Below are positions 21,425-62,606 of a DNA stretch of 64,000 nt, piece by piece. Source of the DNA: a virus. Its lineage: Duplodnaviria > Heunggongvirae > Uroviricota > Caudoviricetes. Under the pieces are notes generated by a model. It was given only the letters and a program-made list of their open reading frames with translations, was not told where the DNA came from and did not search any database. The first letter of the stretch is position 1. The number at the start of each line of letters is the position of its first letter. A program made the translations under genes and the position numbers. The stretch is taken from IMG/VR virus record IMGVR_UViG_3300029456_000117. The stretch is one strand, 5' to 3'.

Positions 21425-21645
21425 AAGAACCGATCAAGTCTACTTATGACTTAACCGGCTCAAAGGCTCTTTGCTTAATTCTATTTTTATTACTTCCTTA
21501 CATCCACGGCAGTTTATAAAAATCGTGCCGGATGCTCCGGGTGCTTTCTTGAAAAGAAGTTTTTCACGGTTTGCCCGCGCCTTACATACAGGGCAGTATA
21601 CGTTTTCCGTTTCCAATATAGCTGCTCCTTTCTGTATGTGGATAG

Positions 21646-21719
21646 TTGCGTGGATGGGATTTGAACCCACGACCGTCTGATTAAAAGTCAGATGCGCTAC
21701 CGAACTGCGCCACCACACA
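21646..21719 (-). tRNA. tRNA-Lys (anticodon UUU)
   Basis: Cloverleaf is TGTGTGG-TG-GCGC/AGTTCGGTA/GCGC-A-TCTGA/CTTTTAA/TCAGA-CGGTC-GTGGG/TTCAAAT/CCCAT-CCACGCA-A. Confidence 0.75.
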
Positions 21720-21789
21720 TTACTGGGCGGCTCACCACCGCCCTATCCTACAATAATGGAGGAACCCATGGCCTCTCGAAAGAGGCAAG

Positions 21790-21862
21790 AGCCGAGAGTG
21801 GGAATCGAACCCACAACCTTTTGATTACAAATCAAATGCTCTGCCAGTTGAGCTATCCGGGC
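21790..21862 (-). tRNA. tRNA-Thr (anticodon UGU)
   Basis: D arm is GCTC/AACTGGCA/GAGC, anticodon arm is TTTGA/TTTGTAA/TCAAA, T arm is GTGGG/TTCGATT/CCCAC. The acceptor has one mismatch. Confidence 0.65.
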
Positions 21863-24562: not shown

Positions 24563-24772
24563 CTACCGTCCTAACCTTTCCTGAATGATTTTCTGTCCAT
24601 CTTCACTCTCATAAAACCTTTGAATTGTTCCGAAACAAAACCTCACTCCATCAGGGATCGGCATATAAGTAAGCAGCTCTCCGGTTTCTAATCGCATTTC
24701 GCAGGATTTAATTCCGAAAATCTTTGATTTACACGTCAACTGAAACTTGTGTTTACAGGTCTGTTCTGCCAT
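24563..24772 (-). CDS. hypothetical protein
   Basis: 69-aa ORF. Confidence 0.35.
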   Translation of the reverse strand: MAEQTCKHKFQLTCKSKIFGIKSCEMRLETGELLTYMPIPDGVRFCFGTIQRFYESEDGQKIIQERLGR

Positions 24773-25900: not shown

Positions 25901-27352
25901 CTATTCAACTGTGATGCAATCATATCTCTCAGAATTGATTGTGTTCTCCATTGCCTCAACCGGGTTGTAACCAAGGTTCTGCAGAATCTGTTTGAATACC
26001 GTCACGGACTGTCCGCTTGCAAGCTGCACGCCCTTGCGGTTGTGATCTGCATGGAATACATCGTGTCTGCTATTCACATTCCAGAAGATAATGTTCGGGA
26101 TTACATAACCAGCCTTGCGGAACTTATTTGCCATCTTGTCATAGAAAGACCACTCACGGTTTCCACAACAGTCAATTTCCATGTCTGATATGACAACGAT
26201 TGCTTTCGGCATTTCCTCCTGCGGAGTATTGTGTTTTTCCGCAATTTCAAGAACCCTCTCAAAAGCAGCTTTAAGGTCTGTGTTATTATCCCAATTTGCT
26301 CTGCTTACGTTGTGGATCTTCTGTTCAATGGTTTCTCCCCTCAGAATAACCGTCTCTGGTCTGTCAGAGAATGTCATAAACAGATTGTGGTATGCACCCA
26401 CATTTCTCTCTGCAAAATAGATTGCAAGACCGATTGATGTTGCCATAGGTCTGCCTCTCATGGAACCGGACACATCCGCCATAACTAAAGCGTTTGTTCC
26501 TTTCTCCACATAATCCGGCAAGGCTTTCCACTGGGCTTCAAGTACCTTGTTGCTCTCTCTGCCGTAAAGGATCTTCTCAACAATATCGTAAGGGAATAGT
26601 GTTGAGGCATTGATCTTTACCTCTCCCTTTTCTGCTTTGCTGATAAACTCTCCAAATCTCTCAGCATCATGTTTCATAAATGCCTTGCGGTAAATCATCA
26701 TCGCACGGCTCGGAACTTCCGGGTATTTGATTTCATCCCATCTTCCGGCTGACATAAGACTTTCAACGACACCGATCTGTTTTCTCATGCTACGGACGAT
26801 TCTCTTGAAATTGTAGACTGGATAGCCTAATTTCTGCGCCGTAAGGATTCCGAGTTTTCTTGTGGCAGAGCTGCTTGCATCTGCGGTCTTAATCCACTTT
26901 GCAAGTAAGGAAATTGCATTTCCGGCATTGAGGTTCTGTAAATCTTCCTCAAACTGTTTCTTCATTGCAGCCCACATATCGTCCTCCAACGGAGTGCCGA
27001 TAAGCTCATACAGATCATCATATCTTCCGAACACACCGACCAGATCAAGGTTCGGTCTGAGTGCTTCCGGGTGTTTCTCTGCCATATAACGAATAATGGT
27101 TCTGAAAGTCTTTCTCTCTCCAAGACCGCCGCGAATGTCTCTTGCATAGAACGCAATCTTTGTAGCAAAGAGTTTGTCCTGTGCGTATGCCTCCGCAAAC
27201 AGAGTGGTAATTCTGTTCTCATCAGCCTCTCTCAGCGATCCGATTGTACCAAACAGATCCAATCTGGCATCGCCAGAAGTATTCAGTGCCACCGCACCAT
27301 TTTCAGTCCGGGTAAATCTACCCTCTTCTCTCATTGCATCTGCAAAGCTCAT
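25901..27352 (-). CDS. rsr: Ro60/Rsr-like RNA-binding protein (TROVE domain plus C-terminal vWA/MIDAS)
   Basis: 483 aa. The C-terminal vWA domain carries MIDAS motif DVSGSM (VMADVSGSMRGRPMATSIGLAIYFAERN). The N-terminal roughly 350 aa are helical-repeat TROVE-like. Size and architecture match bacterial Rsr. Confidence 0.7.
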   Translation of the reverse strand: MSFADAMREEGRFTRTENGAVALNTSGDARLDLFGTIGSLREADENRITTLFAEAYAQDKLFATKIAFYARDIRGGLGERKTFRTIIRYMAEKHPEALRPNLDLVGVFGRYDDLYELIGTPLEDDMWAAMKKQFEEDLQNLNAGNAISLLAKWIKTADASSSATRKLGILTAQKLGYPVYNFKRIVRSMRKQIGVVESLMSAGRWDEIKYPEVPSRAMMIYRKAFMKHDAERFGEFISKAEKGEVKINASTLFPYDIVEKILYGRESNKVLEAQWKALPDYVEKGTNALVMADVSGSMRGRPMATSIGLAIYFAERNVGAYHNLFMTFSDRPETVILRGETIEQKIHNVSRANWDNNTDLKAAFERVLEIAEKHNTPQEEMPKAIVVISDMEIDCCGNREWSFYDKMANKFRKAGYVIPNIIFWNVNSRHDVFHADHNRKGVQLASGQSVTVFKQILQNLGYNPVEAMENTINSERYDCITVE

Positions 27353-27369
27353 GTTTTCCTACCTTTCCA

Positions 27370-27465
27370 GGACTCTCATTTACGGAATTGAACCGTTTCA
27401 CATTGTTTTTTAGACATTTGCTTTAACCATTGTGATTGCTGTAGGAGTCCCTATAAAATTGTTTA
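27370..27465 (-). ncRNA. tRNA-like/Y-RNA-like element next to rsr (acceptor-like terminal stem, internal T-loop GGTTCAATTCC, conserved GTGAC..ACAGCAATC motif)
   Basis: 5' GGGACTC pairs with 3' GAGTCCT. An internal T-loop-like CGG/TTCAATT/CCG is present. Motif copy 1. No anticodon arm. Confidence 0.3.
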
Positions 27466-27475
27466 CTGTTTCATT

Positions 27476-27560
27476 GTCAGGACACTATTGGGGTTTATGA
27501 TTAACAGTCATATCCAAAAGGGTTGCTGTAAGTGTCCCATGTAAAGTTTTATGCCTATCT
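27476..27560 (-). ncRNA. armless tRNA-like element (acceptor stem plus Asn-like anticodon arm TATGA/CTGTTAA/TCATA, no T arm)
   Basis: 5' GGGACAC pairs with 3' GTGTCCT. Motif copy 2 occupies the D-arm position. Confidence 0.3.
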
Positions 27561-27803
27561 GGCTAACTTTTTAAGTTCATACCGCCTGTTATGTATCGCT
27601 CCGACAGAACGACCAATTTTCTCAGACAATTCAGAATCGGTAATCTCATGCTTGATTACCAGTGTATCTTCCTCCGCAGTCCACGGATGAGACGGATATA
27701 GAAATGAAGTTTTGCTGTAATATCGCCTATGCTGTCTCTGACACGCCTTATGATACTTTTCCATATCCCTATAATCTTCTTTTCGGTTCATAGGCAACCT
27801 CAT
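27555..27803 (-). CDS. small Myb/HTH-like DNA-binding protein
   Basis: 82 aa. WTAEEDTLV...LSEKIGRSVGAIHNRRYEL resembles a Myb/SANT or sigma-region-4-like HTH. Confidence 0.4.
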   Translation of the reverse strand: MRLPMNRKEDYRDMEKYHKACQRQHRRYYSKTSFLYPSHPWTAEEDTLVIKHEITDSELSEKIGRSVGAIHNRRYELKKLAR

Positions 27804-27886
27804 TTCTTTACATGACGCTGTTTCAAACGGGAAAATATTGTCAATGGAATTTTCTGTTTTGAAAGATTGCTGTAAGCGTCACTTAA

Positions 27887-27987
27887 TTGCCCCGACAGGA
27901 CTTGAACCCGTATGCTCGATTGCTGTGCGGAACACAAGCGTTATCGCAGTCATGTTCCCTCCGGTTTACCATAACCGGCAATCGGGG
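27887..27987 (-). ncRNA. YrlA-like tRNA mimic 1 (101 nt; acceptor, D and T arms intact; anticodon stem-loop replaced by a long bulged helix)
   Basis: Acceptor stem is GCCCCGA/TCGGGGC. D arm is CCGG/TTATGGTAAA/CCGG. T arm is CGGG/TTCAAGT/CCTG. The middle section is GGAAC-ATGACT-GCG-ATAA-CGC-TTGT-GTTCC plus motif copy 4. Confidence 0.45.
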
Positions 27988-27989
27988 CA

Positions 27990-28108
27990 GAGACGAGGGA
28001 CGGAATCGAACCGCCGACACATGCCTTGGATTGGAATGAGATTGCTGCTGAGATCACTAACATGATCTGCGTATTCATATCATTGCTCTACCATCTGAGC
28101 TACCTCGC
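27990..28108 (-). ncRNA. YrlA-like tRNA mimic 2 (119 nt)
   Basis: Acceptor stem is GGCGAGG/CCTCGTC. D arm is GCTC/AGATGGT/AGAGC. T arm is GGCGG/TTCGATT/CCGTC. About 65 nt of extra structured sequence, containing motif copy 5, replaces the anticodon/variable region. Confidence 0.45.
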
Positions 28109-28158
28109 CATGTGGCACGTCTTATTGATTTGTAAGGACGTTTGTGCCATCGCCTTGA

Positions 28159-28278
28159 TTGGAGAGAGTTGGATTTGAACCAACAATGAAGCAGGCCCCA
28201 AGCTGTAAGATTTGCTGTCAGCATCACAAACATGATGTATTGTACATAACTGCCGCGTCTACCGTTCCGCCATCTCTC
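28159..28278 (-). ncRNA. YrlA-like tRNA mimic 3 (120 nt)
   Basis: Perfect acceptor stem GGAGAGA/TCTCTCC. T arm is GTTGG/TTCAAAT/CCAAC. The body has multiple small hairpins and motif copy 6, with no 7-nt anticodon loop. Confidence 0.45.
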
Positions 28279-28310
28279 CATATTCAGTTTTAATACGGAA
28301 ATCCGTATCA

Positions 28311-28431
28311 GTTGCGTGGGAGGGAATCGAACCCCCATCTCTTCGTTACCATCGAAAAAAGAATTATTGCTGTCCGTGTCACATGGAGCATGACAACCGC
28401 TCATAATGTTCTCTCCATTGAACTACCACGC
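28311..28431 (-). ncRNA. YrlA-like tRNA mimic 4 (121 nt; retains a possible GGU anticodon arm after a 47-nt insertion)
   Basis: Acceptor stem is TGCGTGG/CCACGCA. D arm is GTTC/AATGGAGA/GAAC. T arm is GGGGG/TTCGATT/CCCTC. There is a 47-nt insert containing motif copy 7, then TTTCG/ATGGTAA/CGAAG. Confidence 0.45.
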
Positions 28432-28434
28432 AAG

Positions 28435-28506
28435 ATTGCGGAGACAGGATTTGAACCTGTGACCTCCGGGGCATGAACCCGACAAGCTACCACTGCTCCA
28501 CTCCGC
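28435..28506 (-). tRNA. tRNA-Met (CAU), initiator-like
   Basis: GGCGGAG-TG-GAGC/AGTGGTA/GCTT-G-TCGGG/TTCATGC/CCCGG-AGGTC-ACAGG/TTCAAAT/CCTGT-CTCCGCA-A. It has a 1:72 mismatch and GGG:CCC in the anticodon stem, as in initiator tRNAs. Confidence 0.6.
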
Positions 28507-28721
28507 CATGATGTAACCTCGCCCCTAGGCTACCTTGTAAGTTCCGCTATGTCGTTCCTTGCGTCCCTCACTTAACCGGTGCTAACTACGACAGTATGTG
28601 ACCGGCGGACTTGATTAAATATTTCCGTACACCCGCTTAATGCCCCTCATTGGCGGTTCTGCCGAGACCAATGGCAATGCCGATAGAAAATATCTTTCGG
28701 GAAATCTCTCTAACCCAACTG

Positions 28722-28752
28722 GTTTAGCGTCCGAAGTCAGGACGGCTTTTTA
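28722..28752 (+). terminator. plus-strand rho-independent terminator-like hairpin with U-tract
   Basis: The sequence is gcgtcc-gaagtca-ggacgg-ctttttat. The U-tract is only on the plus strand. The only plus-strand ORF ending here is a weak 64-aa ORF. Confidence 0.4.
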
Positions 28753-29115
28753 TAATACTCTGGATATTGTCTTTCCAGAATTGTTCAGAATAAATACAAC
28801 CTTGTCCTCACAACCAATTCTGCTAAATACATAGCTTTCATCATCAGTTGTTACGACTACGAGATTATCGTTTTCTTCTAACGCAGGATCTCCGAGGTAC
28901 CAAGTAATGTTGTCTCTGCAAAAGCCGGCCTTTTTAATCTCATTCTCAACGCGGTTATAATTCTCTTTTCTCGCGTAAAGTTCTTCGTCAGCATCTTTGC
29001 AATTCTTTGTGTCAATCAACTTTGACTTCAAATCTCCTACTGAAAAACTTTCGATAATTCTTGATTCCATAAGGATTAAATTGTCTGAACCTTTCTTGCC
29101 TATCTGTAATATCAT
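28750..29115 (-). CDS. hypothetical protein embedded in the tRNA array
   Basis: 121-aa ORF with balanced composition. Confidence 0.45.
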   Translation of the reverse strand: MILQIGKKGSDNLILMESRIIESFSVGDLKSKLIDTKNCKDADEELYARKENYNRVENEIKKAGFCRDNITWYLGDPALEENDNLVVVTTDDESYVFSRIGCEDKVVFILNNSGKTISRVL

Positions 29116-29241
29116 TTCGTTTCTTCCTTTCTGTCTGAGCCTTTCGGCTTTATTTTCTCCGTTCCGGACCGGATATTGGATAGGTAAGGGATCGAACCTT
29201 ACACTGGAATATTACGATAGTCGCAGATTACCTCATGTGTT

Positions 29242-29345
29242 TGGTGCGTACGGATTTTTGAACCTATCGTATCAAAGGTGGATGGCTGCCATTCCTGCTT
29301 ATTCCAATCACTGCACTTTGCGCTGTTGCCACATCGGGACGCACC
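29242..29345 (-). ncRNA. tRNA-like element (104 nt) with perfect acceptor stem GGTGCGT/ACGCACC and a T-loop-like GGTTCAAAA
   Basis: A 7-bp terminal stem encloses structured sequence. There is no canonical anticodon arm. Confidence 0.35.
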
Positions 29346-29436
29346 TTTTCCTCAACCGTACTAATATTGCAGTTACCCTTTACTGCCTACTATCCAATTC
29401 TGAAACCTCCTCCACCGGTGGAATACGGTTTCATAG

Positions 29437-29519
29437 CGGTGCATATAGGAATCGAACCTATACGGCATTTCTGCCGGATGGCTTAGCAAGCCACTCCGCT
29501 ACCATTACGGCAATGCACC
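29437..29519 (-). tRNA. tRNA-Ser (anticodon GCU), class II
   Basis: Acceptor stem is GGTGCAT/ATGCACC. Anticodon arm is GTGGC/TTGCTAA/GCCAT. Long variable arm is CGGCA-GAAA-TGCCG. T arm is ATAGG/TTCGATT/CCTAT. Confidence 0.6.
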
Positions 29520-29523
29520 ATAA

Positions 29524-29595
29524 CGACTCTATTGGGAATCGAACCCAAATTTTCCGATAGACAGTCGGGCGTAATAACCTTTATACCATAGAGCC
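29524..29595 (-). tRNA. tRNA-Asp (anticodon GUC)
   Basis: GGCTCTA-T-GGTA...TACG-CCGA/CTGTCTA/TCGG-AAAAT-TTGGG/TTCGATT/CCCAA-TAGAGTC-G. Confidence 0.65.
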
Positions 29596-29719
29596 AAAAC
29601 CACAAAGTAAAATGCGACCTCACACCGCGGAATCGAACCGTTCCTTTCTCTATTGGTTTTTGGATAGAGAATGTGCAACCCATACACCTACGAATCGAAC
29701 GTATCCTTTACTTTGCCAC

Positions 29720-29802
29720 GCCGTGTTAGGGATTTGAACCCCAGAGACTTTTACATCCAGACGGTTTTCAAGACCGCACCCTCGACCAACCGGACACACG
29801 GC
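29720..29802 (-). tRNA. tRNA-Ser (anticodon UGA), class II
   Basis: Acceptor stem is GCCGTGT/ACACGGC. Anticodon arm is GCGGT/CTTGAAA/ACCGT. A long variable arm is present. T arm is TGGGG/TTCAAAT/CCCTA. Confidence 0.7.
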
Positions 29803-29916
29803 AGAGTAGTTTTCCCTTGGTAACGTACAAGTCGGAGATCCTCTTCCGCCGGTCGTAAACGCCCTTTCGTAACCTTTTTATGGAGTGCTTTGAAAGAGTA
29901 AGTCAAGTGTCTCCAA

Positions 29917-29988
29917 CTGGCAAGGTGGGGATCGAACCCACGACATTCTGATTAACAGTCAGACGCTCTACCACTGAGCTACAAGCCA
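29917..29988 (-). tRNA. tRNA-Asn (anticodon GUU) with two U-U mismatches in the acceptor stem
   Basis: TGGCTTG-TA-GCTC/AGTGGTA/GAGC-G-TCTGA/CTGTTAA/TCAGA-ATGTC-GTGGG/TTCGATC/CCCAC-CTTGCCA-G. Confidence 0.55.
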
Positions 29989-29991
29989 TTA

Positions 29992-30066
29992 TTGGAGTAA
30001 CAGGACTCGAACCTGCGCTAACCAACATCCGTAGTGTTGTGCTCTATCCATCTGAGCTATACTCCA
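29992..30066 (-). tRNA. tRNA-Arg (anticodon ACG)
   Basis: TGGAGTA-TA-GCTC/AGATGGAT/AGAGC-A-CAACA/CTACGGA/TGTTG-GTTAG-CGCAG/GTTCGAGT/CCTGT-TACTCCA-A. Confidence 0.7.
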
Positions 30067-30069
30067 ATG

Positions 30070-30833
30070 CAGTCCGGCGGCAGCTTGGATGGTTGCCACT
30101 ACCGAACCGATGCAACGTGTAAGACAGTTGCCAACAAAGGTATTTCATTTTTTAATGTGGTTCTCGGACCTTGCACCCCTCCACATGGTTCTCATAATCC
30201 ACCGACTACATACTCAAAGAACCTTTGACGAGTCCAACTCTTTATCGCCTTACCTCGGATGTACGTTGTTATCGCAGTTCTCCGCCTCTACTACATTCCT
30301 CTGCGCCTGACTAAGCATGACGGCTCGATTGGTTACGGCTCACGCACATCTATAATCAGGTCTTTCTCGGAAGTTTCCACCGCCGCTTAAATCGCTGTAA
30401 CGCTCATGCACTCTAAGCAGTAAATTTTCCGCACCGGAGTTTTTCTTAAAAACTCTTGGTAATGAAAAAGCACTTGGTGATCACCGGAACCTCGCCACCG
30501 CCAATTTTCTTTCCTGTTAAAGCCGGACTAAGAAAATCAGTTAAGAAATCCGCTCGTCCTACGGTGGGGAGTTGAACCCCACTTTCCCCGGCATGGTGTC
30601 CGTGGCATTTCCAGTTATGCTATCGTAGGCACCGTTGCAACAGTGGTCTTTAGCGTGACTTACGCAAGCTCTCCAATTTTAAGTCCTGTCGGCTTTCCCA
30701 GACTACTCACATAAGCCTCTCAGTGAGCATTGCAATCTCCCTATTTAATGATTGCTTACCACGGCTTTCGCCAATACTTTTCAGCCGGAACACTAAACCA
30801 ACTATAAACAGTCAGCGTTATTCTCAGTTGAAA
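30070..30833 (-). other. about 760-nt ORF-free region inside the tRNA array, with a tRNA-like fragment at about 30566-30631 and repeated ccaccgcc elements
   Basis: There is no minus-strand ORF of 60 aa or more. The fragment has a T arm TGGGG/TTCAACT/CCCCA and acceptor-like pairing. The strand and extent of any RNA are unknown. Confidence 0.2.
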
Positions 30834-30905
30834 TGTTCGATGGGAGAATCGAACTCCCGTCCCCACCGTGAAAAGGTGGTGTCTTGACCGTTTGACTAAT
30901 CGAAC
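30834..30905 (-). tRNA. tRNA-Glu (anticodon UUC)
   Basis: GTTCGAT-TA-GTC/AAACGGTCAA/GAC-A-CCACC/TTTTCAC/GGTGG-GGAC-GGGAG/TTCGATT/CTCCC-ATCGAAC-A. Confidence 0.65.
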
Positions 30906-31013
30906 AGAGGAGCGTTCCTTTTTACCGAAAGGCAATTAACCGCACAAGCGTAAACGGGTTCCTGATATTGATTTTTTCTTGCAAGATTACTTTCTCGGCT
31001 CATTACACCGAAA

Positions 31014-31103
31014 TGGGCGAAAGAGGAATTGAACCTCCAATGTTTACCACGAGGGAACGGATTTACAGTCCGCCGCAACACCACCAATCGTTGCCGTTCG
31101 CCC
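31014..31103 (-). tRNA. tRNA-Tyr (anticodon GUA), class II
   Basis: Acceptor stem is GGGCGAA/TTCGCCC. Anticodon arm is GCGGA/CTGTAAA/TCCGT. The variable region is 18 nt. T arm is GGAGG/TTCAATT/CCTCT. Confidence 0.6.
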
Positions 31104-31221
31104 GGAATTTTCTTTGTATCGCCAAGAACATTAGGAAAGAAGCGGTGGGAATCTTGATCGCTAGAGCTGCACCCACAGGTGGAATCGAACCACCACACTA
31201 CACCAAGTTCGCTCCGATCAT

Positions 31222-31497
31222 TTAGCGATTCACTTCATCTTTCAGTGCTTTACCGGCTTTGAACTTAGGTGCTTTGCAAGCCGGAATGGAAATCTCTTTT
31301 CCGTTCTGAGGGTTCTTGCCAACTCTGGCAGCGCGCTCAGTCACTTCAAATGTTCCGAAACCTACCAACTGCACTTTTCCACCCTTTCCAAGTTCTCCGC
31401 CTACGATCTCAACAAATGCGTTGAGTGCTTTTTCAGCGTCACTTTTGGAAAGTCCGGCATCGTCAGCCATAGCCTGTACTAATTCAGCTTTATTCAT
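31222..31497 (-). CDS. hup: HU family DNA-binding protein
   Basis: MNKAELVQAMADDAGLSKSDAEKALNAFVEIV...VQLVGFGTFEVTERAARVGKNPQNGKEISIPA is a canonical HU/IHF signature. Start is taken at the internal Met of ORF 31222-31533. Confidence 0.8.
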   Translation of the reverse strand: MNKAELVQAMADDAGLSKSDAEKALNAFVEIVGGELGKGGKVQLVGFGTFEVTERAARVGKNPQNGKEISIPACKAPKFKAGKALKDEVNR

Positions 31498-32467
31498 TGC
31501 CCTGTACCTCCGTTGTTGATGAAAGATCTCCAATGTCTACGATTGTGTCCGTGCCGTCAGATAGTGATACTTTCGGCAGTGCGCCGTCCCACTTCTCCAA
31601 ATACATCTGCTGCAAAATCTTATTCGTCAGTGAATCATTCAACAGTTTATTGGCGTCCGCTTCCCCCTGCGCTTTAATAACGGCAGCATCAGCTTCGCCC
31701 TGCGCCTGAGTAGTTTTTACCTTGGCATCTGCCTCAGCGGCCTCGATTTTTTTCTTATTTTCGATCTGCTGCTGTTCATAAGCCAACTGTGCGGTCTGTT
31801 TTTCAGCGATTGCCTGATTGTAACTGTCCTCAAAATCAGTATTGGCAATTACTACCTTGTTGATGATTACTACGTCCTCTCCATATTTCTCATTGAGGGC
31901 TTTCTGAATGTTCTGCATGGAAAGAGGTTCTACGATTCCTCTATTCGTTGCATCTGTTGAGGCCAAGGACTTGCTGCTTGTCTTGATTGCGGAAGCCACA
32001 AGTGTCTGCGTTACAAGGTTCTCCTTATAGTTGCTGACGTTTGCATAAATCCATGCGGACATTTCCGGGTTGATCTGGTATGTAACTGTAATGCCGTCAT
32101 AATACAGTGACGTTCTTTCCGATGTTTCAGACCAAATCTGTCCGTCAAAAACAATGTCCTGCTGCTTGTTGTTGACTTTCTCAATCTTCTGGATGAATGG
32201 GATCTTCCAGTTTGCGCCGTTCTGTATTGTTGTCTCATCAATCTGTCCGAATGTGCTTTTAACTCCGGTATATCCGGTCGGTATAATCACGAGTGAATTA
32301 CCTACTCCGAATACAATCAGACCAACAAGTGCCACAACAACAAAACCTTTTGGGAATTTTGCTTTCTCATTTCCCTTTTCCTCGATTTCATACTGTTTTA
32401 ACAAACACCCTGCAATGATGCCGCCGAAGAAAAGTATGATTCCGATGATCGTCAAAATGATACTCAT
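31490..32467 (-). CDS. SPFH/band-7 (HflK/C, stomatin-like) membrane protein
   Basis: 325 aa with an N-terminal TM helix, an SPFH core and a C-terminal AEA/Q-rich coiled coil (QAQGEADAAVIKAQGEADA). Confidence 0.65.
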   Translation of the reverse strand: MSIILTIIGIILFFGGIIAGCLLKQYEIEEKGNEKAKFPKGFVVVALVGLIVFGVGNSLVIIPTGYTGVKSTFGQIDETTIQNGANWKIPFIQKIEKVNNKQQDIVFDGQIWSETSERTSLYYDGITVTYQINPEMSAWIYANVSNYKENLVTQTLVASAIKTSSKSLASTDATNRGIVEPLSMQNIQKALNEKYGEDVVIINKVVIANTDFEDSYNQAIAEKQTAQLAYEQQQIENKKKIEAAEADAKVKTTQAQGEADAAVIKAQGEADANKLLNDSLTNKILQQMYLEKWDGALPKVSLSDGTDTIVDIGDLSSTTEVQGNE

Positions 32468-32629
32468 TCCGTTCTCCTTTTCCGTTTGTATTGCTACCTC
32501 TGGTAGCCGTCACGGTCATGCGCTGGACATTCCGTTTCTGTTCTGCATCGGCGCACTCAACCACCTTACTTCGTCTGGTCTATCTTGGTGTAGCTTCCAT
32601 TTACCCGGGAAATGCCAGATCGCCATGCG

Positions 32630-32704
32630 TGGACCATCAGGGACTTGAACCCCAGACCATCCGGTTATGAGCCGGACGCTCTAACCAACTGAGCTAATGG
32701 TCCA
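32630..32704 (-). tRNA. tRNA-Met or tRNA-Ile2 (anticodon CAU), elongator type
   Basis: GGACCAT-TA-GCTC/AGTTGGTTA/GAGC-G-TCCGG/CTCATAA/CCGGA-TGGTC-TGGGG/TTCAAGT/CCCTG-ATGGTCC-A. Confidence 0.65.
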
Positions 32705-32803
32705 TACCTCACACTCAGGGAGATTTGATGTGAGGTTTCGGAGGATTATCATAAGTGGGAACCCTCCGATGTAGGATTGCTGTCGGGGAACAGTAATCCC
32801 GAG

Positions 32804-32876
32804 TGGGAAGTGTTGGTGTCGAACCAACTCCTATGGATTTTCAGTCCATCGCTTCTACCGAGTTAGCTTACTTCCC
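32804..32876 (-). tRNA. tRNA-Phe (anticodon GAA)
   Basis: GGGAAGT-A-AGCT...GAAGC-G-ATGGA/CTGAAAA/TCCAT-AGGAG-TTGG/TTCGACA/CCAAC-ACTTCCC-A. Confidence 0.7.
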
Positions 32877-44614: not shown

Positions 44615-44821
44615 TTATTTTATATGTGGATCTGCTCCGCCCTCCGGCGGCTCTGTTATTTCTATCTCTATACCGCAACCAATGGCGGCGGCGTATTTCT
44701 CCATATCGTCAAGTGTGAACTTGTCGGCGTTTAGTCTCTGGTTTACGTTCTGCCGGGACACGCCCAGACGATCCGCCACCTCTTGCACCGATACCCCGCG
44801 CCGTTTCATCATAACGCGCAT
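44615..44821 (-). CDS. HTH transcriptional regulator (repressor-like)
   Basis: HTH GVSVQEVADRLGVSRQNVNQRL. The start is taken at internal MRVMMKRRG. The longer ORF 44615-44977 would overlap operator sites. Confidence 0.55.
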   Translation of the reverse strand: MRVMMKRRGVSVQEVADRLGVSRQNVNQRLNADKFTLDDMEKYAAAIGCGIEIEITEPPEGGADPHIK

Positions 44822-44939
44822 TTTTTCGCCAAAACTCAACCGCACCGGCTCCGCCCTCCTTTCTCTCTGTACCCCTTTAATATATAGGAATCTGCGCCGC
44901 CTGTCAAGTCTGCCGTTTACATGGTAAAGACTGCGCCGG

Positions 44940-45075
44940 GGTTTTTCTGCACTTTGTAAAGTGTACAATTTACACAATAAACCGCCGTTGTTTTGTTTAG
45001 TCGGCTATACACTTTTCACAAACTCAAAAAAATGTAAAGTTTTTGCTTGACTTTGTAAAGCGTGCGGTTTACAAT
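44940..45075. promoter_or_regulatory. divergent regulatory region with two copies of a roughly 24-bp palindromic operator (TTTGTAAAG-N8-TTTACAAT)
   Basis: Copy 1 is ctttgtaaagtgtacaatttacacaat. Copy 2 is ctttgtaaagcgtgcggtttacaatac. Each has inverted half-sites TGTAAA/TTTACA. Between them is ttgcttgac. Confidence 0.5.
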
Positions 45076-51301: not shown

Positions 51302-51994
51302 ATGGAGGTCTTAGGCATGATTGATATTACAAACTGCAATAAAATCATCATTGATACAAACGAAAAGGTTGAAAAGATCATTGATTGGTACGAACAAAAT
51401 AAAGATTGGTTGGATGCCGAAGAGTTCCGCATCCCTATCCCCTCCGCTCTCGTTGAGCTGCCGGAGGAAGATATAAAATTCTATTATGAATCTGAGGGTG
51501 TGTTTGCGCGGTTGCACCTGTATATGGCCGGTGTGTATGTCTGTAATTACAGATATGATCCGAAGTCTCAGAAGATAGGCGAACTCATTTTCCCGGTTAC
51601 TTTAAGTAAGGAAAAACGCAAGGCAGCTCAGATGATATTGGCTGCCGACAGAACGCCGTACAAAGAGGCATTGAAGTTCCACTCTCTCATGTGCTTTGCC
51701 ACTCATTACCGCAACTGCATTGAGACAGCGGATCAGAAAGAGAAACATATCTCCAGTAGCCATAAGAAACGCATACAGCGTTCCGGCGGTACAACTCCGC
51801 TCATCACAACGTATCGCATTGATAACCGTCCCATTCCGGCACATCCGGGAGCAAAACGGCAATATACAAAGCCTACGGAACAGGTAAGTGTGAGAGGCTT
51901 CTACCGAACCACTAAAACAGGCAAACGTGTATGGGTTCGCCCATTCACAAAATACAACGGAAACTCTGAAAATCATAAAACATACAAAGTATAG
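51302..51994 (+). CDS. hypothetical protein
   Basis: 230-aa ORF. Confidence 0.4.
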   Translation: MEVLGMIDITNCNKIIIDTNEKVEKIIDWYEQNKDWLDAEEFRIPIPSALVELPEEDIKFYYESEGVFARLHLYMAGVYVCNYRYDPKSQKIGELIFPVTLSKEKRKAAQMILAADRTPYKEALKFHSLMCFATHYRNCIETADQKEKHISSSHKKRIQRSGGTTPLITTYRIDNRPIPAHPGAKRQYTKPTEQVSVRGFYRTTKTGKRVWVRPFTKYNGNSENHKTYKV

Positions 51995-52003
51995 GAGGAC
52001 ACT

Positions 52004-53209
52004 ATGAGCAATTTGAAAGTATACGCAAAAACCATTGAAGATGAAGCACTTGAACAGATCAACACTCTTCTGTCTCAGGATGCCTTTAAGGACTGCAAGG
52101 TTCGCATTATGCCGGATGTTCATGCCGGTAAAGGCTGTGTAATCGGATTTACGGCAGACCTGGGAGAAAAGGTTATCCCGAACATTGTCGGAGTAGATAT
52201 TGGCTGTGGTATGCTCTGCGTGAGCATCGGACACGGAGATATTGATTTTGAAAAATTGGATAATGTCATTCGTACCTATGTCCCTAGTGGAAGAAATGTG
52301 CATGACGGTAGAGTTATGCGTTTTGGCGAATTACAAGACCTCTACTGTTACCGCGAATTGAGAGACACCAAGCGTATTGAGCGTTCTATCGGAACTCTCG
52401 GCGGCGGGAACCATTTCATTGAGGTTGATGTTGCTGAGGATGGATATAAGTATCTGGTTATTCATACCGGTAGCCGTAACCTCGGAAAACAGGTGGCGGA
52501 TTATTACCAGAATCTTGCCTACGAATTGATGTGTGGCAAGGACGATTTGTATGAGCGTCAGGATAAGCTCATTGAGGAATACAAGGCTGCCGGAAGAAAG
52601 TCTGAGATTGAGGCTGCCTTAAAAGAATTGCGTGAGAATTTCCGTGCCACCACTCCGAAGCTGCCAAAGGATCTGTGCTACTTGGATGGAAAGTACCGGG
52701 AGCAGTATTTACATGATATGCGTATCTGCCAGAAGTTTGCATATTTCAACCGTGTGATGATCGCGCAAATCATCTGCAATCACATGGGATGGGGAGTTGA
52801 TGCTGATATGCCGGATTACTTTGAGTGCATCCACAACTATATAGACCACGATTCTAATATTGTCCGCAAGGGTGCTATCTCTGCAAAACTCGGAGAAAAG
52901 GTACTTATCCCTATCAATATGCGTGACGGCTGTATTCTCGGAACCGGAAAGGGCAATGATGATTGGAACTGTTCTGCGCCGCATGGAGCTGGCCGGCTTA
53001 TGTCCCGGAGCAAAGCAAAGGAAACTCTCTCTTTGAGCGATTATTCTGCTTCTATGTCCGGCATCTACACCACTTCCGTATCTGAGGAAACCATAGATGA
53101 AGCTCCGATGGCATACAAACCGATTGAGGAAATCATGGACTGTATCAAAGATACCGTTGATATTCTCGCAGTATTGAAGCCGGTCTATAATTTCAAGGCG
53201 AGCGAATAA
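52004..53209 (+). CDS. rtcB: RtcB-family RNA 3'-phosphate/2',3'-cyclic-phosphate ligase
   Basis: 401 aa. It has the RtcB signatures MPDVHAGKGCVIGF, GGGNHFIEV, HTGSRNLG and the C-terminal HNY...GAGR metal/GTP-binding residues. Confidence 0.85.
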   Translation: MSNLKVYAKTIEDEALEQINTLLSQDAFKDCKVRIMPDVHAGKGCVIGFTADLGEKVIPNIVGVDIGCGMLCVSIGHGDIDFEKLDNVIRTYVPSGRNVHDGRVMRFGELQDLYCYRELRDTKRIERSIGTLGGGNHFIEVDVAEDGYKYLVIHTGSRNLGKQVADYYQNLAYELMCGKDDLYERQDKLIEEYKAAGRKSEIEAALKELRENFRATTPKLPKDLCYLDGKYREQYLHDMRICQKFAYFNRVMIAQIICNHMGWGVDADMPDYFECIHNYIDHDSNIVRKGAISAKLGEKVLIPINMRDGCILGTGKGNDDWNCSAPHGAGRLMSRSKAKETLSLSDYSASMSGIYTTSVSEETIDEAPMAYKPIEEIMDCIKDTVDILAVLKPVYNFKASE

Positions 53210-53946: not shown

Positions 53947-53961
53947 TTTAAGGCAGAGGTT

Positions 53962-54621
53962 TTATTCCTCTGCCTTTTCTATGAGCTCCCATGCCTTTTC
54001 ATCGCCAAATTCTTTCCTTACGGCTTTCCATAATCTGAGGTACTTCTTGGATTCTCTGTCTCTTTCAGTCCTTGCCTTATCAATCTGACTTCTGAGACGG
54101 CTTATATACTGCTCATCCTCCGTCTGTATCAGCTTATCAGAATCCCGATACAACGAACGAATCATGCTCTCTTTGAGCATATCTACCCACAGAGTAGATA
54201 CCTCTGTACTGCGTCCATTGACTGAACGGCGCATTTTATACTCTCTGCCGGATAAATCCTGTTTCTTTGCTTTCTTAGCGCAGTAATCTCCGATATAGAC
54301 ACCAATCCAGTCCGGTATCTCTTCCTTGACCTGATTGTATAATTCCCTTGTGAGAACATAATAGTTGTAATGGCCTACAAAGGATTTTGCAGCAGCACTA
54401 TGGAAGTCCGCTTTCGACACCTTAATTTCATAGCACCGGAACACTCCCTTGGTGTCATAGGTCATGTAATCAACTCTTTCTCTTCCGCAAAATCCGATTG
54501 TTACCTCATAGCAGCCAAATACACCGGTCTTTCTTGTGGCCAGTCTGATTGCTTTTTCCAGTGCTACAGTTTCAGCGGTTTTCATTTCAGATCCTCGATT
54601 GAGAATACAAGACCTACACAA
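53962..54621 (-). CDS. PD-(D/E)XK-like nuclease fold protein (tentative)
   Basis: 219 aa. VDYMTYDTKGVFRCYEIKVSKADF fits D...E-x-K. Confidence 0.3.
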   Translation of the reverse strand: MCRSCILNRGSEMKTAETVALEKAIRLATRKTGVFGCYEVTIGFCGRERVDYMTYDTKGVFRCYEIKVSKADFHSAAAKSFVGHYNYYVLTRELYNQVKEEIPDWIGVYIGDYCAKKAKKQDLSGREYKMRRSVNGRSTEVSTLWVDMLKESMIRSLYRDSDKLIQTEDEQYISRLRSQIDKARTERDRESKKYLRLWKAVRKEFGDEKAWELIEKAEE

Positions 54622-56829: not shown

Positions 56830-57645
56830 TCAGGCATGGATAAGAGCTTTCGGGAACTCTTGAATGAGTTCTTCGCCCCAAATGTCCGTGAGGCTTGGTT
56901 TCATAAATACCGGTATGTTGTACTTTCTGCACTGTTCAACAATATTTTCTATCCATTCTCGTCTTGGTATGACTTTATCTTTTCTGCTGCCAGTCTCCGC
57001 TCCTACGATGATCCACTCCGGGATGTATGATTTCTCACTCAGCTCTCCAAAGTCTGCCAGTATAGGCTCTACTGACAAAAACGTATGGAACTCATAGTGT
57101 CCGTCCTGTCCCATATACTCCGTATCTGGATCTGTGACTGTCGTTCCGTACCACATATTATCTCTGAGTGGTAATTCTCCGTAATGATGCAGCTCAATAT
57201 ATCTTCCGGGATTCTTCGTGAGGAAGAGGTAATTATGCTGCGGAGCTTTCTCACAAGCATTAAACACTTCCCTGATCCATCTATCAGGAACCCACTCTCC
57301 AAACACATCCGACATTGATCCGACAAAGATATTTCTCTGCCTCTTTTTGTCTCTGTATTCTCCCATGCGGTATCTGTGTATTGTCGGTACAAATCCGTGT
57401 GGATAAGCACATCTGTACTGTTTCCCGGTCTCATCGTCCACATAATACGGCTGCTCATTGATTTCGTAGACTTTTGAGCCATCATCTCTCGTAAGTTTGT
57501 ACGTTTCCGGCTCTACCAGATGGCAGCCTTTTCTTGATACAAACCGGTTAGCAATACCTCTTGCATAACAATAAGGGCATTTGTGACGGCAACCTGTTAT
57601 GGGATTCCATGTGCTGTCAGCCCATTCTATCTTTGTTTTATCCAT
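56830..57645 (-). CDS. phage Gp37/Gp68 family protein (DUF5131)
   Basis: The N-terminus MDKTKIEWADSTWNPITGCRHKCPYCYA matches the family's TxIEWTDxTWNPxxGC signature. Confidence 0.6.
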   Translation of the reverse strand: MDKTKIEWADSTWNPITGCRHKCPYCYARGIANRFVSRKGCHLVEPETYKLTRDDGSKVYEINEQPYYVDDETGKQYRCAYPHGFVPTIHRYRMGEYRDKKRQRNIFVGSMSDVFGEWVPDRWIREVFNACEKAPQHNYLFLTKNPGRYIELHHYGELPLRDNMWYGTTVTDPDTEYMGQDGHYEFHTFLSVEPILADFGELSEKSYIPEWIIVGAETGSRKDKVIPRREWIENIVEQCRKYNIPVFMKPSLTDIWGEELIQEFPKALIHA

Positions 57646-57874
57646 TGCGTTTCCTCCTGACGTACTTCCCTACATGATTGACGTAGCCGCAATAACAACA
57701 TCTCACATCATCTCTGAGGCGGCTCTTATAAATCTGATTCCCGCAGCATCCACAGTCAAATTCTTTCGGGTTTACTTTATTTTTCTTCATTCTCCTATCG
57801 CTCCTTTGGAAATAATTTGCCGTCAAACCATTCCGGTTCCCGGCGGACTTTGAAATACTTGTACTTCGGATCAT
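57638..57874 (-). CDS. zinc-ribbon protein
   Basis: 78 aa with CGCCGN...CCYCG. Confidence 0.35.
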   Translation of the reverse strand: MIRSTSISKSAGNRNGLTANYFQRSDRRMKKNKVNPKEFDCGCCGNQIYKSRLRDDVRCCYCGYVNHVGKYVRRKRNG

Positions 57875-58355
57875 CGCTTATACTCACAGCCAAAATCCAG
57901 TTGTCGATCATGCTCATTTTTTTAATCCAAACAGGTATCTCGAATCCATCGCATTTCAATATCCACTCGCTGCCAACTGGGTATTTAATAACTGTGTCAT
58001 TCGCAAGATCCGGTTCTGCAAAATAAGGAATACCATAGTCCTCTCTGTTTCCTGCATTATCATCAATGTAACAGGTGGCACATATTTTTCTGGTATTGTT
58101 TCCAAACTTTTCTACCAACTCAGGCAGATTGTCATTGACTGCATCAAACTCTAATCCGTACTGTTTGCACCACTCCACTGCTTTCTGCGTCTGTTCCTCA
58201 TTCCGGCACGTCCAGAGGATGAGTTTTGTTCCGTTTTCTCTTTTGCGAATAAGGTAGCTTATCAATTTCTTATTCGGTGGTCCTATTTCCGGCCATCTGT
58301 TCTCGCAGAGTGTTCCGTCAAAATCTACCGCATATATCTCTGTCGAACTGCTCAT
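57795..58355 (-). CDS. HAD-superfamily phosphatase/nucleotidase
   Basis: DxDGT motif (AVDFDGTL) near the N-terminus. 186 aa. Confidence 0.5.
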   Translation of the reverse strand: MSSSTEIYAVDFDGTLCENRWPEIGPPNKKLISYLIRKRENGTKLILWTCRNEEQTQKAVEWCKQYGLEFDAVNDNLPELVEKFGNNTRKICATCYIDDNAGNREDYGIPYFAEPDLANDTVIKYPVGSEWILKCDGFEIPVWIKKMSMIDNWILAVSISDDPKYKYFKVRREPEWFDGKLFPKER

Positions 58356-61335: not shown

Positions 61336-62061
61336 TTAATCCATGCCGTCATAAAGGCTTTCAGATAATTCAACCTGTTCGTCTGTCAAATCCCTAAGTG
61401 CATTGATTATCTTCATCTTTGTTTCTTTGCATGGGAAATATCCGTACTTTGCATATCTCAGCATCCGTTCAAAAGTGCTCATTGGAAACGGAATATCTTT
61501 ATCAATTACAATCCGTTTAAGATGCAGATGTTCAAAAAACGCATCATCCATCAGGATTTTGTACTCAATGTGTGTTTCCGGTATTCCAATTTCCTCTAGG
61601 AAATGCTCATCTTCCAGAGTTTCAAACGGAAGTTCTTGTCTTTTCGCTACCGCACCAGTTTCATCCTCTACTTCCTCTTTGTAATATGCGAACTTCGTGA
61701 TTGTGAAATCGAACTTATTCAGAATTTCTTCCGGTTTTCCAAATATTTTGCAACAAAGTTCAATCACAACACCTGTTTCAATGTGTTTGTATGCCTTTAC
61801 ATTGTCGTTTTCGTAGTGGAAATGATATTTCTCATCTCTTACATCGTCTCCGTCATATCCTGGTGTCTGACTGTCAAAATACTGTACCGCATCATCAAAA
61901 TCGCTTTCATTCTCAAAGAAAATATCAAGGTCCTTTACCTTTTCTTTATTGAATATGTTTTTGAAACATCCTCCACATATAAATCCTTTATGACCGGTCA
62001 TGTACTCATCAAGCCAATTTAATATCCAGAAGTTTTCTCTGTCTCTCTTTATTAGAGCCAT
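61336..62061 (-). CDS. nucleotidyltransferase-fold (pol-beta-like) protein
   Basis: GGCFKNIFNKEKVKDLDIFF fits the GS/GG-x(10-13)-DxD NTase signature. 241 aa. Confidence 0.35.
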   Translation of the reverse strand: MALIKRDRENFWILNWLDEYMTGHKGFICGGCFKNIFNKEKVKDLDIFFENESDFDDAVQYFDSQTPGYDGDDVRDEKYHFHYENDNVKAYKHIETGVVIELCCKIFGKPEEILNKFDFTITKFAYYKEEVEDETGAVAKRQELPFETLEDEHFLEEIGIPETHIEYKILMDDAFFEHLHLKRIVIDKDIPFPMSTFERMLRYAKYGYFPCKETKMKIINALRDLTDEQVELSESLYDGMD

Positions 62062-62069
62062 GTTTCCTC

Positions 62070-62606
62070 CTATCTCCGTGCCATTGCTTCCTCGTATAAT
62101 CGTTTGTATACGTCCCTCTCAGCAGTTATCTTTGCAATTTCCAACTGTGTCTCAATGTCCGGCATCTCCACCTTTTCTGCAATAGGTTCAGGTTCTTTCT
62201 CGTCTGGCTTCACTGCTTCATTTGCAGCTTCCGCCCACTTCTTTACCAGATCATTCGATTTGATGTTAATTCCAATACCGATACTTACCGCCAATGCCGC
62301 ATCAATCTTTTTCATTTCCGCCATAGAACACTGCCCTATGTAGTCTCCAACCTTATCCTTATTTACCGTGTCAATCTGCTCACAAAGCACAGTGGACGGA
62401 TATTTTGAACTGTTAATTTTAACGTGTGTCGGCAACGGTTTCTTTTCCTGGGTGGTAAGGTAAACCACTTCCAATATAGGACCTGCGTTGTTGCCAATAT
62501 CATTGCTTATGATTACCGCAGGTCTACCCCCCCCCTGTACATTTCCGCTATATTCACTCTCGTTGCGGATATAGAAGATTTCCCCTCTATAAAATTCTTT
62601 GTTCAT
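62070..62606 (-). CDS. PemK/MazF-like toxin-fold protein with an acidic C-terminal extension
   Basis: GGGRPAVIISNDIGNNAGPILEVVYLTT matches the MazF/PemK core (RPxlvvs...vvPlT). It contains an in-frame 9-G tract (GGG). Confidence 0.5.
   Translation of the reverse strand: MNKEFYRGEIFYIRNESEYSGNVQGGGRPAVIISNDIGNNAGPILEVVYLTTQEKKPLPTHVKINSSKYPSTVLCEQIDTVNKDKVGDYIGQCSMAEMKKIDAALAVSIGIGINIKSNDLVKKWAEAANEAVKPDEKEPEPIAEKVEMPDIETQLEIAKITAERDVYKRLYEEAMARR
62527..62535 (-). repeat. poly-G (9) tract inside the PemK-like gene (in frame)
   Basis: Homopolymer followed by TGT on the plus strand. Confidence 0.9.

Follow-up and report, generated by a model that had tools for sequence, protein, structure and literature searches.

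What would a temperate phage of gut bacteria mend with an RtcB RNA ligase, and which partners would help it to do so? This question is raised by the rtcB gene at positions 52004..53209 (plus strand) of a 64,000-nucleotide stretch of viral DNA (Caudoviricetes; IMG/VR record IMGVR_UViG_3300029456_000117), the whole of which is referred to below as the window. The same stretch holds tRNA genes, a series of small RNAs and a gene for a Ro60-like protein of the DUF2828 family, and the original prediction, made from the sequence alone, had read this set as a phage version of the rsr-yrlBA-rtcBA RNA-repair module of Salmonella. Our best explanation is that the RtcB of this temperate siphovirus would mend toxin-cut RNA, mostly tRNA, a reading that we place slightly above an even chance. 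Repair of toxin-cut tRNA has the best support among the possible roles: elsewhere RtcB is a recurrent neighbour of tRNA arrays and of a Ro-like protein, tRNA halves induce the Salmonella operon, and a reading of this kind has already been published for jumbo phages.

The RtcB enzyme and its transcription unit

The rtcB open reading frame (ORF) starts with ATG, preceded by a strong Shine-Dalgarno sequence (AGGAGGA, 51993-51999), and its 401 codons specify a putative RNA 3'-phosphate/2',3'-cyclic-phosphate to 5'-OH ligase whose translation holds MPDVHAGKGCVIG, GTLGGGNHFIEV and CIHNYID. The protein is a member of the Pfam family PF01139 (E=1e-62; 213 bits, the cut-off being 27), matches PHROG 1075 'tRNA splicing ligase' over residues 3-401 (E=3.9e-133) and also matches the RtcB chains of Thermus, Pyrococcus and human in the PDB at 1e-13 to 1e-10. 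Alignment with the RtcB of Escherichia coli K-12 (taken from NC_000913.3) revealed that the metal and active-site residues D75, C78, N167, H168, H185, R189, H281, H337, R341 and R345 of the E. coli enzyme correspond to D65, C68, N136, H137, H154, R158, H277, H327, R331 and R335 of the phage protein. These are the essential residues, with roles assigned in studies of the Shuman laboratory, H337 being the GMP-accepting nucleophile; all 10 are identical in the window. The identification made in the original prediction therefore holds, and 52004-53209 encodes an ordinary RtcB with an intact active site, predicted to be catalytically competent. Identity amounts to 34% with the E. coli enzyme and 49% with that of Listeria phage A511, and cellular relatives at 57-68% identity are found in Clostridia genomes. 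The protein shares an insertion of about 40 residues at approximately 175-215 with the RtcBs of Listeria phages and gut phages, and it scores far below the NCBIfam equivalog cut-offs. Assignment to the RtcB2-PrfH ribosome-rescue type was considered and discarded, given that TIGR03073 gave 100.6 bits against a cut-off of 271.8, matching the N-terminal part only, and that the neighbours of rtcB are phrog_10678 and an FxLYD lipoprotein gene, not PrfH.

The window encodes an SPP1-type portal, a terminase-like protein and an ORF of tape-measure size (1561 aa), with nearly all genes on the minus strand, and represents a siphovirus-like phage of gut Lachnospiraceae. Its own lineage, termed here lineage A, comprises dozens of 60-85 kb contigs in IMG/VR. 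Diplocloster hominis, a cultured species of Lachnospiraceae, carries a relative (a copy 88% identical, flanked by the same genes) within a contig of 355 kb; because this relative is integrated, the phage is taken to be temperate and its host group is likely the Lachnospiraceae.

The rtcB gene belongs to the sole plus-strand block of the window (approximately 45.0-53.95 kb), which contains, in this order, an FtsK-like gene, a short tyrosine recombinase, phrog_10678, rtcB and the FxLYD lipoprotein-like gene. Promoter-like sites occur at 45047/45367, near the start of the unit, from which a helix-turn-helix (HTH) regulator gene (44615-44977, minus strand) diverges. At the other end, between convergent genes, a hairpin with a 10-bp stem including 6 GC pairs and followed by a T-run (53950..53976) is likely a bidirectional terminator ending the unit that holds rtcB. 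We also considered rtcB as a recent foreign insertion, but base composition does not favour this: the plus-strand block has a GC content of 0.45-0.46 as compared with 0.41-0.48 elsewhere, and the skews follow the coding strand.

The gene immediately upstream, phrog_10678 (51302..51994, plus strand), ends 9 nucleotides (nt) before the rtcB start codon. It is listed with 230 aa; most homologues start at M6 (51317), so that the protein would have 225-230 residues. Adjacency of the two genes is kept in relatives that are only 50-59% identical, and a deletion variant lacks phrog_10678 and RtcB together. The protein gave no match in Pfam or NCBIfam, its predicted model (pLDDT 78) found no fold relative in the PDB, and its best match in BFVD is an uncharacterised protein of Bacillus phage PBC2. 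Its C-terminal tail is very basic and invariant (KRxYTKPTEQVSVRGFYRTTKTGKRVWVRPFTKY), which suggests binding to nucleic acid, and phrog_10678 may be a cofactor of RtcB.

The DUF2828 protein, the tRNA array and a family of small RNAs

The gene that had been called rsr (25901..27352, minus strand) encodes a 483-aa, putatively RNA-binding protein made up of DUF2828, DUF7788 and VWA domains. A canonical Rsr identity was rejected on sequence: TROVE gave no match even at E<=10 and phmmer matched the protein to no Ro60 chain. What stands of the claim is the fold, and fold comparison alone ties the DUF2828 protein to Ro60. Its predicted model best matches Ro60 structures, in alignments of 239-295 residues that far exceed the 130-160 residues of VWA-only matches, and for this reason the protein looks like a Ro60-fold protein of a separate sequence family. 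Some depositors have labelled DUF2828 proteins as 'RNA-binding protein' or 'Ro-like'; the papers mentioning DUF2828 that our literature search retrieved are unrelated in subject.

ARAGORN called 13 tRNAs on the minus strand between 21.6 and 32.9 kb, one of them odd, in agreement with the predicted presence of at least 12 including an initiator. Eleven calls form an array at 28434..32876 (Met, Ser, Asp, Ser, Asn, Arg, a call with a 4-base anticodon, Glu, Tyr, Met and Phe), and two further tRNAs, Lys-UUU and Thr-UGU, lie beside the portal gene (21645..21862). The tRNA-Met at 28436-28507 looks like an initiator because its anticodon stem has three G:C pairs and position 1:72 is mismatched. The call at 30556-30629, to which ARAGORN assigned the four-base anticodon acca, was not reported by Rfam at the thresholds used and could be a frameshift-suppressor-like tRNA, a tRNA mimic or a false call.

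Seven small RNA genes occupy the interval between tRNA-Met and the DUF2828 start codon (27368..28432, minus strand). Four of them (28312-28432, 28160-28279, 27991-28109 and 27888-27988) are tRNA-like RNAs with expanded arms, recognised by the Rfam tRNA model with 40-44 bits, whose acceptor, D and T arms are normal and which carry inserts of 55-62 nt in or beside the anticodon arm. The other three (27814-27880, 27481-27536 and 27370-27450) are stem-closed RNAs of 56-81 nt. All seven carry (Y)ACAGCAAY or a near variant, and the cluster is conserved in 39-57 related contigs. The Y-RNA-like mimics of the original prediction are hence real and conserved small RNAs, four of them tRNA-like, but they do not reach the threshold of YrlA (RF02553), whose gathering score is 69 and whose best matches in the window, at 19-31 bits, covered the tRNA-like parts only. 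The tRNA array (11 tRNAs), the seven small RNAs and the DUF2828 gene constitute what we call the RNA island, which occupies the interval from the terminase gene to the portal gene and leaves rtcB outside.

In the window as a whole, ACAGCAAY occurs 18 times as compared with 4.85 expected, a count reached in 0 of 100 shuffles. A strict scan (a 6-bp stem arm, 1-3 nt, ACAGCA[AG] and the matching arm 20-110 nt downstream) recovered two to three tandem elements adjoining DUF2828 in six contexts: the window, a second gut-phage lineage (lineage B), Listeria phage A511, a chromosomal cassette of Clostridia, the genome MT837221 and the contig L080, with DUF2828 proteins 24%-100% identical to that of the window. 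The closing stem is present in 15 of 18 motifs located within 700 nt of DUF2828 versus 9 of 68 elsewhere (Fisher p=3e-8). A looser scan (ACAGCA, 0-3 nt spacer, 15-120 nt span) added Bacillus phage Tsamsa, with elements between a 17-tRNA array and DUF2828, and Mycobacterium phage CELFI, whose middle element encloses a tRNA-like domain with a weak global match to YrlA. This brings to eight the contexts in which such RNAs flank DUF2828, and a single candidate, more divergent than these, lies just upstream of DUF2828 in Synechococcus phage B23. Between them, the scans placed elements at 5694-5955 in A511 (L232), 8062-8281 in the Clostridia contig (L248), 1948-2395 in Tsamsa (L252), 3962-4209 in CELFI (L253), 14085-14612 in L080, 406-609 in L002 and 9849-9978 in the gut-phage contig L151. 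The family thus spreads with DUF2828 over a Clostridia chromosome and phages of Bacillota and Actinomycetota, a looser variant lying near the gene in a cyanophage. No ACAGCAA RNA was found near RtcB in loci devoid of DUF2828; these RNAs track DUF2828, not RtcB. In the B23 locus (L254), a 110-nt RNA annotated as 'tRNA-Undet' (4366-4475) was also observed just downstream of DUF2828, beside three normal tRNAs, a hint that in cyanophages as well DUF2828 has insert-bearing tRNA-like RNAs at its side.

Members of the family share a terminal stem of 6-7 bp, a single-stranded (Y)ACAGCAAU directly after the 5' arm and a 3' end in CUG or CAG, and some of them hold an inserted tRNA-like domain. The only Rfam match for the short forms is the Dictyostelium Class I RNA (RF01414), global and below threshold (19.6-23.7 bits against 41.5), which occurs in three unrelated phages, i.e. 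the window (27370-27450 and 27481-27536, minus strand), A511 (L232, 5694-5838) and CELFI (L253, 4157-4211). In common with Class I RNAs, these short RNAs have a 5' G, the terminal stem, a 3' end in CUG or CAG and, by the 5' arm, CU[UA]ACAGCAAU; a CUUACAGCAA-type motif is found in both. Such are the traits published for Class I RNAs, which are reported to be exclusive to dictyostelids and for which no function is known (PMC7919456). The resemblance could reflect homology, convergence or chance, and we think it improbable that the Dictyostelium RNAs are eukaryotic counterparts of the phage family.

A gene for an SPFH/Band-7 protein (31490..32467, minus strand; Pfam Band_7, E=2.5e-15) lies inside the tRNA array of the window and was found in about 14 of about 50 island loci of lineage A. 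In lineage B, a weaker Band-7-like stretch was observed between DUF2828 and TerL, the slot held by RtcB in other contigs. Proteins of this type were reportedly proposed by Burroughs and Aravind in 2016 as scaffolds for RNA repair, with both Rot/TROVE and SPFH scaffolds said to occur in RtcB systems.

RtcB beside DUF2828 and tRNA arrays in other genomes

Whether RtcB travels with the other components was assessed in IMG/VR and in a collection of isolate phages. The IMG/VR loci came from the best 80 matches per listing, and absence among the matches listed is unreliable, as illustrated by L209 and L227, where RtcB was missing among those listed and yet present on inspection. Lineage A was sampled through the neighbouring FtsK gene, and a full-length RtcB was found in 60 of the 62 contigs with enough DNA downstream of it; within this lineage the co-presence of RtcB and the RNA island is a matter of shared ancestry. 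Clusters also exist outside it. In Listeria phage A511, 16 tRNAs are succeeded by DUF2828, an HD protein and RtcB, one after another, and an Rnl-type RNA ligase is encoded farther along. Four gut-phage contigs (L151, L154, L156 and L162) present tRNAs, a tRNA-like RNA, DUF2828, a tRNA, RtcB and TerL on one strand, and in MT837221 RtcB and then DUF2828 directly adjoin. Even a bacterial chromosome has the pair: in a contig of a Clostridia metagenome-assembled genome (L248; CAKPEF010000001.1, 8277-11212), two ACAGCAA stem RNAs precede a DUF2828 gene (34% identity to that of the window) followed by rtcB (59%), the neighbours being housekeeping genes that include an M20 peptidase, a GHMP kinase, a permease and HtpG. 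This cassette is a Gram-positive counterpart of the rsr-rtcB link of Salmonella, built with a different Ro-like family. The order of tRNAs, small RNAs and DUF2828 seen in the window recurs in A511, Tsamsa and L151, and RtcB lies within a co-directional island in A511, in the four gut-phage contigs, in L002 and in L248, not in the window or its lineage.

RtcB keeps company with tRNAs alone in a further gut-phage lineage (RtcB 81-83% identical), where 5-7 tRNAs, RtcB and TerL follow each other without DUF2828. Dulem virus 39, which has the best RtcB relative among named phages (62.5%), shows no annotated Ro-like gene or tRNA in its first 50 kb, an observation that speaks neither for nor against linkage. 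When the IMG/VR contigs L052-L070 and L136-L142 are compared, similar terminase and portal genes are seen with varying RNA genes in the slot upstream of TerL. Across contigs this slot holds tRNAs and RtcB in some cases, tRNAs and DUF2828 in others, and both in few. It behaves like a hot spot for accessory RNA genes, and RtcB and DUF2828 are independent accessory genes, often lodged in one such hot spot near the terminase and sometimes combined.

Among the 50,697 records of isolate phages, RtcB was detected in 654 (about 1.3%) and DUF2828 in 709; a fused query of the two matched 1285 records in all, which leaves about 78 that have both, as compared with 9 expected if they were independent. The co-occurrence that the original prediction had proposed to look for is thus real in clusters (A511, the L151 type, MT837221 and L248) but far from general, and several observations speak against a joint repair system, or against repair during infection as the purpose of RtcB. 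About 88% of the RtcB-positive phage records have no DUF2828. The overlap is nearly all in Herelleviridae (about 53 records from Listeria and about 21 from Enterococcus phages), and because it comes from two related groups of this family it points to few independent events; in Mycobacterium (221+95=316) and Bacillus (63+28=91) phages the union equals the sum of the two counts, so that no record has both. In lineage B, 15 of 19 loci have a DUF2828 85-88% identical and no RtcB within 10 kb, and one lineage-A contig (L217/L135) has retained DUF2828 and ten tRNAs together with a 28-residue RtcB remnant. In the window itself a distance of 25 kb separates rtcB from the Ro-like gene, the two being on opposite strands and in separate transcription units, and no RtcA, RtcR, archease, kinase-phosphatase or HD protein was found in the approximately 60 ORFs scanned, a set that did not extend to small ORFs of the structural region. 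These features do not fit the phage version of a single rsr-yrlBA-rtcBA module that had been proposed. Moreover, rtcB shares its unit with integrase-like and lipoprotein genes and could be expressed from the prophage instead of in the lytic cycle, and the literature searched yielded no experimental study of a phage RtcB.

A proposed repair function, its alternatives and known systems

RtcB enzymes seal 3'-phosphate or 2',3'-cyclic-phosphate ends directly to 5'-OH ends in a reaction that depends on GTP and Mn2+, and metal-independent RNases, e.g. anticodon nucleases and MazF, leave 2',3'-cyclic-phosphate/5'-OH ends. This established mechanism implies that the breaks left by such endoribonucleases can be resealed directly. 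In the window, GTP and Mn2+ would serve to guanylylate H327, from which GMP would be moved to the 3'-phosphate of the broken RNA for attack by the 5'-OH end. The substrates would be tRNAs, possibly also rRNA or mRNA, cut by RNase toxins of the host or of competitors such as anticodon nucleases and toxin-antitoxin RNases. RtcB would act beside a tRNA array that replaces damaged tRNAs and beside the Ro60-like DUF2828 protein with its own small RNAs, and would be expressed from its own unit with the conserved partner phrog_10678, not in one operon with the other parts. MazF has indeed been used to generate 2',3'-cyclic-phosphate/5'-OH ends, and the rsr-yrlBA-rtcBA operon of Salmonella is induced by tRNA halves that end in 2',3'-cyclic phosphate (PMC7790460). 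In jumbo phages, tRNAs, RtcB/Rnl ligases and ROT/TROVE proteins have been read as a means of repairing effector-cleaved RNA (PMC7824862). An anti-defence role for the phage enzyme is plausible and has been put forward before in general terms (PMC7824862). Our analysis establishes which gene this is, that its active site is intact, how the genome is laid out and that such genes cluster repeatedly in other genomes; the substrates, the timing, this anti-defence purpose and any physical cooperation with DUF2828 we infer. It is tempting to go further and to regard DUF2828 as a second Ro60-like ribonucleoprotein branch with cognate small RNAs, which together with RtcB and the tRNA arrays of phages would respond to RNA damage in parallel to Rsr-YrlA-RtcB, phrog_10678 being an RtcB-specific cofactor; taken as a whole, we hold this composite picture to be less likely than not.

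The location of rtcB lends itself to another explanation, lysogenic conversion, by which the unit formed by the FtsK-like gene, the short tyrosine recombinase, phrog_10678, RtcB and the FxLYD lipoprotein would be expressed from the prophage and RtcB would guard the lysogen from RNase bacteriocins, contact-dependent tRNase toxins or stress-induced RNA breakage, much as a host rtcBA would, the lytic cycle not being the beneficiary. The integrated relative in the 355-kb D. hominis contig, the placement of rtcB in the sole plus-strand block, between a divergent HTH regulator gene and a terminal hairpin, the integrase-family and lipoprotein-like neighbours, typical of accessory units, and the cellular relatives (57-68% identical) in Clostridia genomes are all consistent with this possibility. 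Yet RtcB adjoins tRNA arrays and terminase genes in other phages, that is, blocks of lytic type, and it is kept by A511-type phages, which are generally regarded as strictly virulent. On these grounds lysogenic conversion appears to us unlikely, although less so than the other two alternatives.

One of these assumes that the damage is of the phage's own making. The window encodes a MazF/PemK-like endoribonuclease of 178 aa (62070..62606, minus strand; Pfam PemK_toxin, E=4e-23; PHROG 1936, E=1e-40), a possible in-phage source of 2',3'-cyclic-phosphate/5'-OH ends, in whose translation the catalytic Arg and Thr of MazF appear to be present (GGRPAVIIS, VVYLTT). If it cut host and perhaps phage RNAs, RtcB could reverse or limit the damage on those that are needed. 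MazF products are substrates of RtcB (PMC5416887; PMC7790460), the E. coli enzyme having been reported to re-ligate MazF-cut 16S rRNA and so to reverse MazF processing (PMC5416887), and the MazF-like gene is conserved along with RtcB in most lineage-A contigs with enough flank. Against this, 9 kb separate the two genes, which lie on opposite strands, and the RtcB lineages of groups 2 and B have no MazF gene within 10 kb. Nor do RtcB and MazF form a general phage pairing: in the 50,697 phage records a fused query gave a union of 744 versus 654+97, i.e. about zero overlap when threshold losses are allowed for, and in Faecalibacterium phage FP_Brigit the 22 kb inspected around the MazF-like gene contain no annotated RtcB. 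We regard control of self-inflicted damage as quite improbable. Least credible of all, and in our opinion close to dismissible, is splicing in the archaeal or eukaryal style, in which an endonuclease would excise the 55-62 nt inserts and RtcB would join the tRNA-like halves, a variant of the suggestion in the original prediction that RtcB processes the insert-bearing genes. In archaea and animals tRNA splicing does rely on RtcB as its ligase, and four tRNA-like genes have large insertions in or beside the anticodon arm. The inserts, however, hold the same ACAGCAA motif as the free-standing stem RNAs and the DUF2828-adjacent RNAs of unrelated genomes, which argues that they are functional modules, not introns; no splicing endonuclease appeared among the ORFs scanned; and the tRNA-like RNAs track DUF2828, none being near RtcB in loci without it, while most phages with such RNAs beside DUF2828, e.g. 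Tsamsa and CELFI, lack RtcB.

Repair of toxin-cut RNA, mostly tRNA, therefore remains our preferred reading, and a few other genes of the window may be considered next to it. Upstream of the MazF-like gene, whose product has a 70-aa C-terminal extension and whose like was also seen in Faecalibacterium and Lactobacillus phages, a 125-aa ORF (62616-62993) matches only unknown PHROGs, and no antitoxin was recognised there. Directly downstream, 61336..62061 (minus strand) encodes a candidate Pol-beta-type nucleotidyltransferase; it matches PHROG 4400 of unknown function (E=5e-72) and, weakly, PHROG 1614 'nucleotidyltransferase' (E=2.6e-7), its translation contains G-G-x12-D-L-D, and it gave no match in Pfam or the PDB. 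A 202-aa protein (39138-39746, minus strand) has an Rv2179c-like 3'-5' exoribonuclease domain (E=9e-11) and may be relevant, since Ro60 proteins work with 3'-5' exoribonucleases; equally, it could be a DNA exonuclease. Three radical-SAM-type proteins are encoded on the minus strand (24753-25448, 56830-57645 and 60796-61326), one by a gene in the RNA island just downstream of DUF2828 that is variable among relatives and another being a DUF5131 protein; a function in RNA or DNA modification is possible. The 186-aa product of 57795-58355 (minus strand) displays an N-terminal DxDGT motif typical of HAD phosphatases, together with weak PHROG matches to 'phosphoheptose isomerase' and 'polynucleotide kinase', and is a candidate end-healing phosphatase; an identically labelled gene is found near the RNA ligase of A511. 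Finally, the Rfam int-alpA RNA was detected at 15099-15166 (minus strand; 43.8 bits, gathering score 35.8), inside the structural gene region.

As regards RtcB itself, our analysis adds one more phage to a set already annotated and interpreted, the concept of a repair toolkit being in print (PMC7824862). What matters more is the apparent Ro60-like fold of DUF2828 with an RNA family undescribed by Rfam in eight contexts, the chromosomal DUF2828-RtcB cassette of Clostridia that mirrors the rsr-rtcB link of Salmonella, and the tightly conserved RtcB partner gene without a known fold relative. In the literature searched we found no paper linking RtcB with DUF2828. Should these three observations stand, they would amount to a second Ro/Y-RNA-like system and would provide a handle on the repair targets of RtcB in Gram-positive bacteria and their phages. 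Because the lineage exists as a prophage in D. hominis CSJ-3, the repair idea is testable in a cultured gut bacterium.

Phage T4 repairs PrrC-cleaved tRNA-Lys with Pnkp and Rnl1, a kinase-phosphatase and an ATP-dependent ligase of 5'-phosphate and 3'-OH ends. The parallel lies in a phage RNA ligase proposed to undo anticodon-nuclease damage, and the window does carry tRNA-Lys(UUU); but T4 heals and seals, whereas RtcB seals directly and needs no healing enzymes, and, unlike in the case of PrrC, we know of no cognate nuclease for the RtcB of the window. With E. coli RtcB (rtcBA) the phage enzyme shares the fold family, identical catalytic residues at 34% overall identity and the expected direct sealing of 3'-phosphate and 5'-OH ends, and it differs in the insertion of about 40 residues and in having no RtcA or RtcR partner.

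Phage Ro60 proteins with upstream Y-like RNAs have been described before (PMC4201824; PMC12135203). The Ro60 of Thermus phage phiLo differs from the protein of the window in being a TROVE protein, with a CGAA bulge motif in its two upstream Yrl RNAs; no RtcB is discussed for this phage, and the role proposed is the hijacking of host PNPase (PMC12135203). The rsr-yrlBA-rtcBA operon of Salmonella Typhimurium (PMC7790460) also combines a Ro60-fold protein, tRNA-mimicking RNAs next to the Ro gene and an RtcB ligase, with tRNA breakage as the presumed trigger and substrate. Its Ro protein has TROVE where that of the window has DUF2828; the RNAs of the window score too low for YrlA and have a motif of another kind; RtcA and RtcR are missing among the ORFs scanned; RtcB is 25 kb off in another unit; and the carrier is a phage with 13 tRNA genes. 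The window is hence not a Salmonella-type operon as judged by TROVE, YrlA, RtcA/RtcR and co-transcription, and the likeness is a loose one, in that a single genome combines RtcB with a Ro-fold protein and tRNA-mimic RNAs. The nearest true counterpart is the island of A511/P100-type Listeria phages, where RtcB is 49% and DUF2828, by estimate, about 36% identical to those of the window, and where a tRNA array likewise lies upstream of DUF2828 with ACAGCAAU stem RNAs between array and gene. In A511 the cluster is contiguous and co-directional, with an additional HD phosphohydrolase and Rnl, and its carrier is a large virulent myovirus; in the temperate siphovirus studied here the lineage has the island without RtcB in it, the ligase being detached and paired with phrog_10678.

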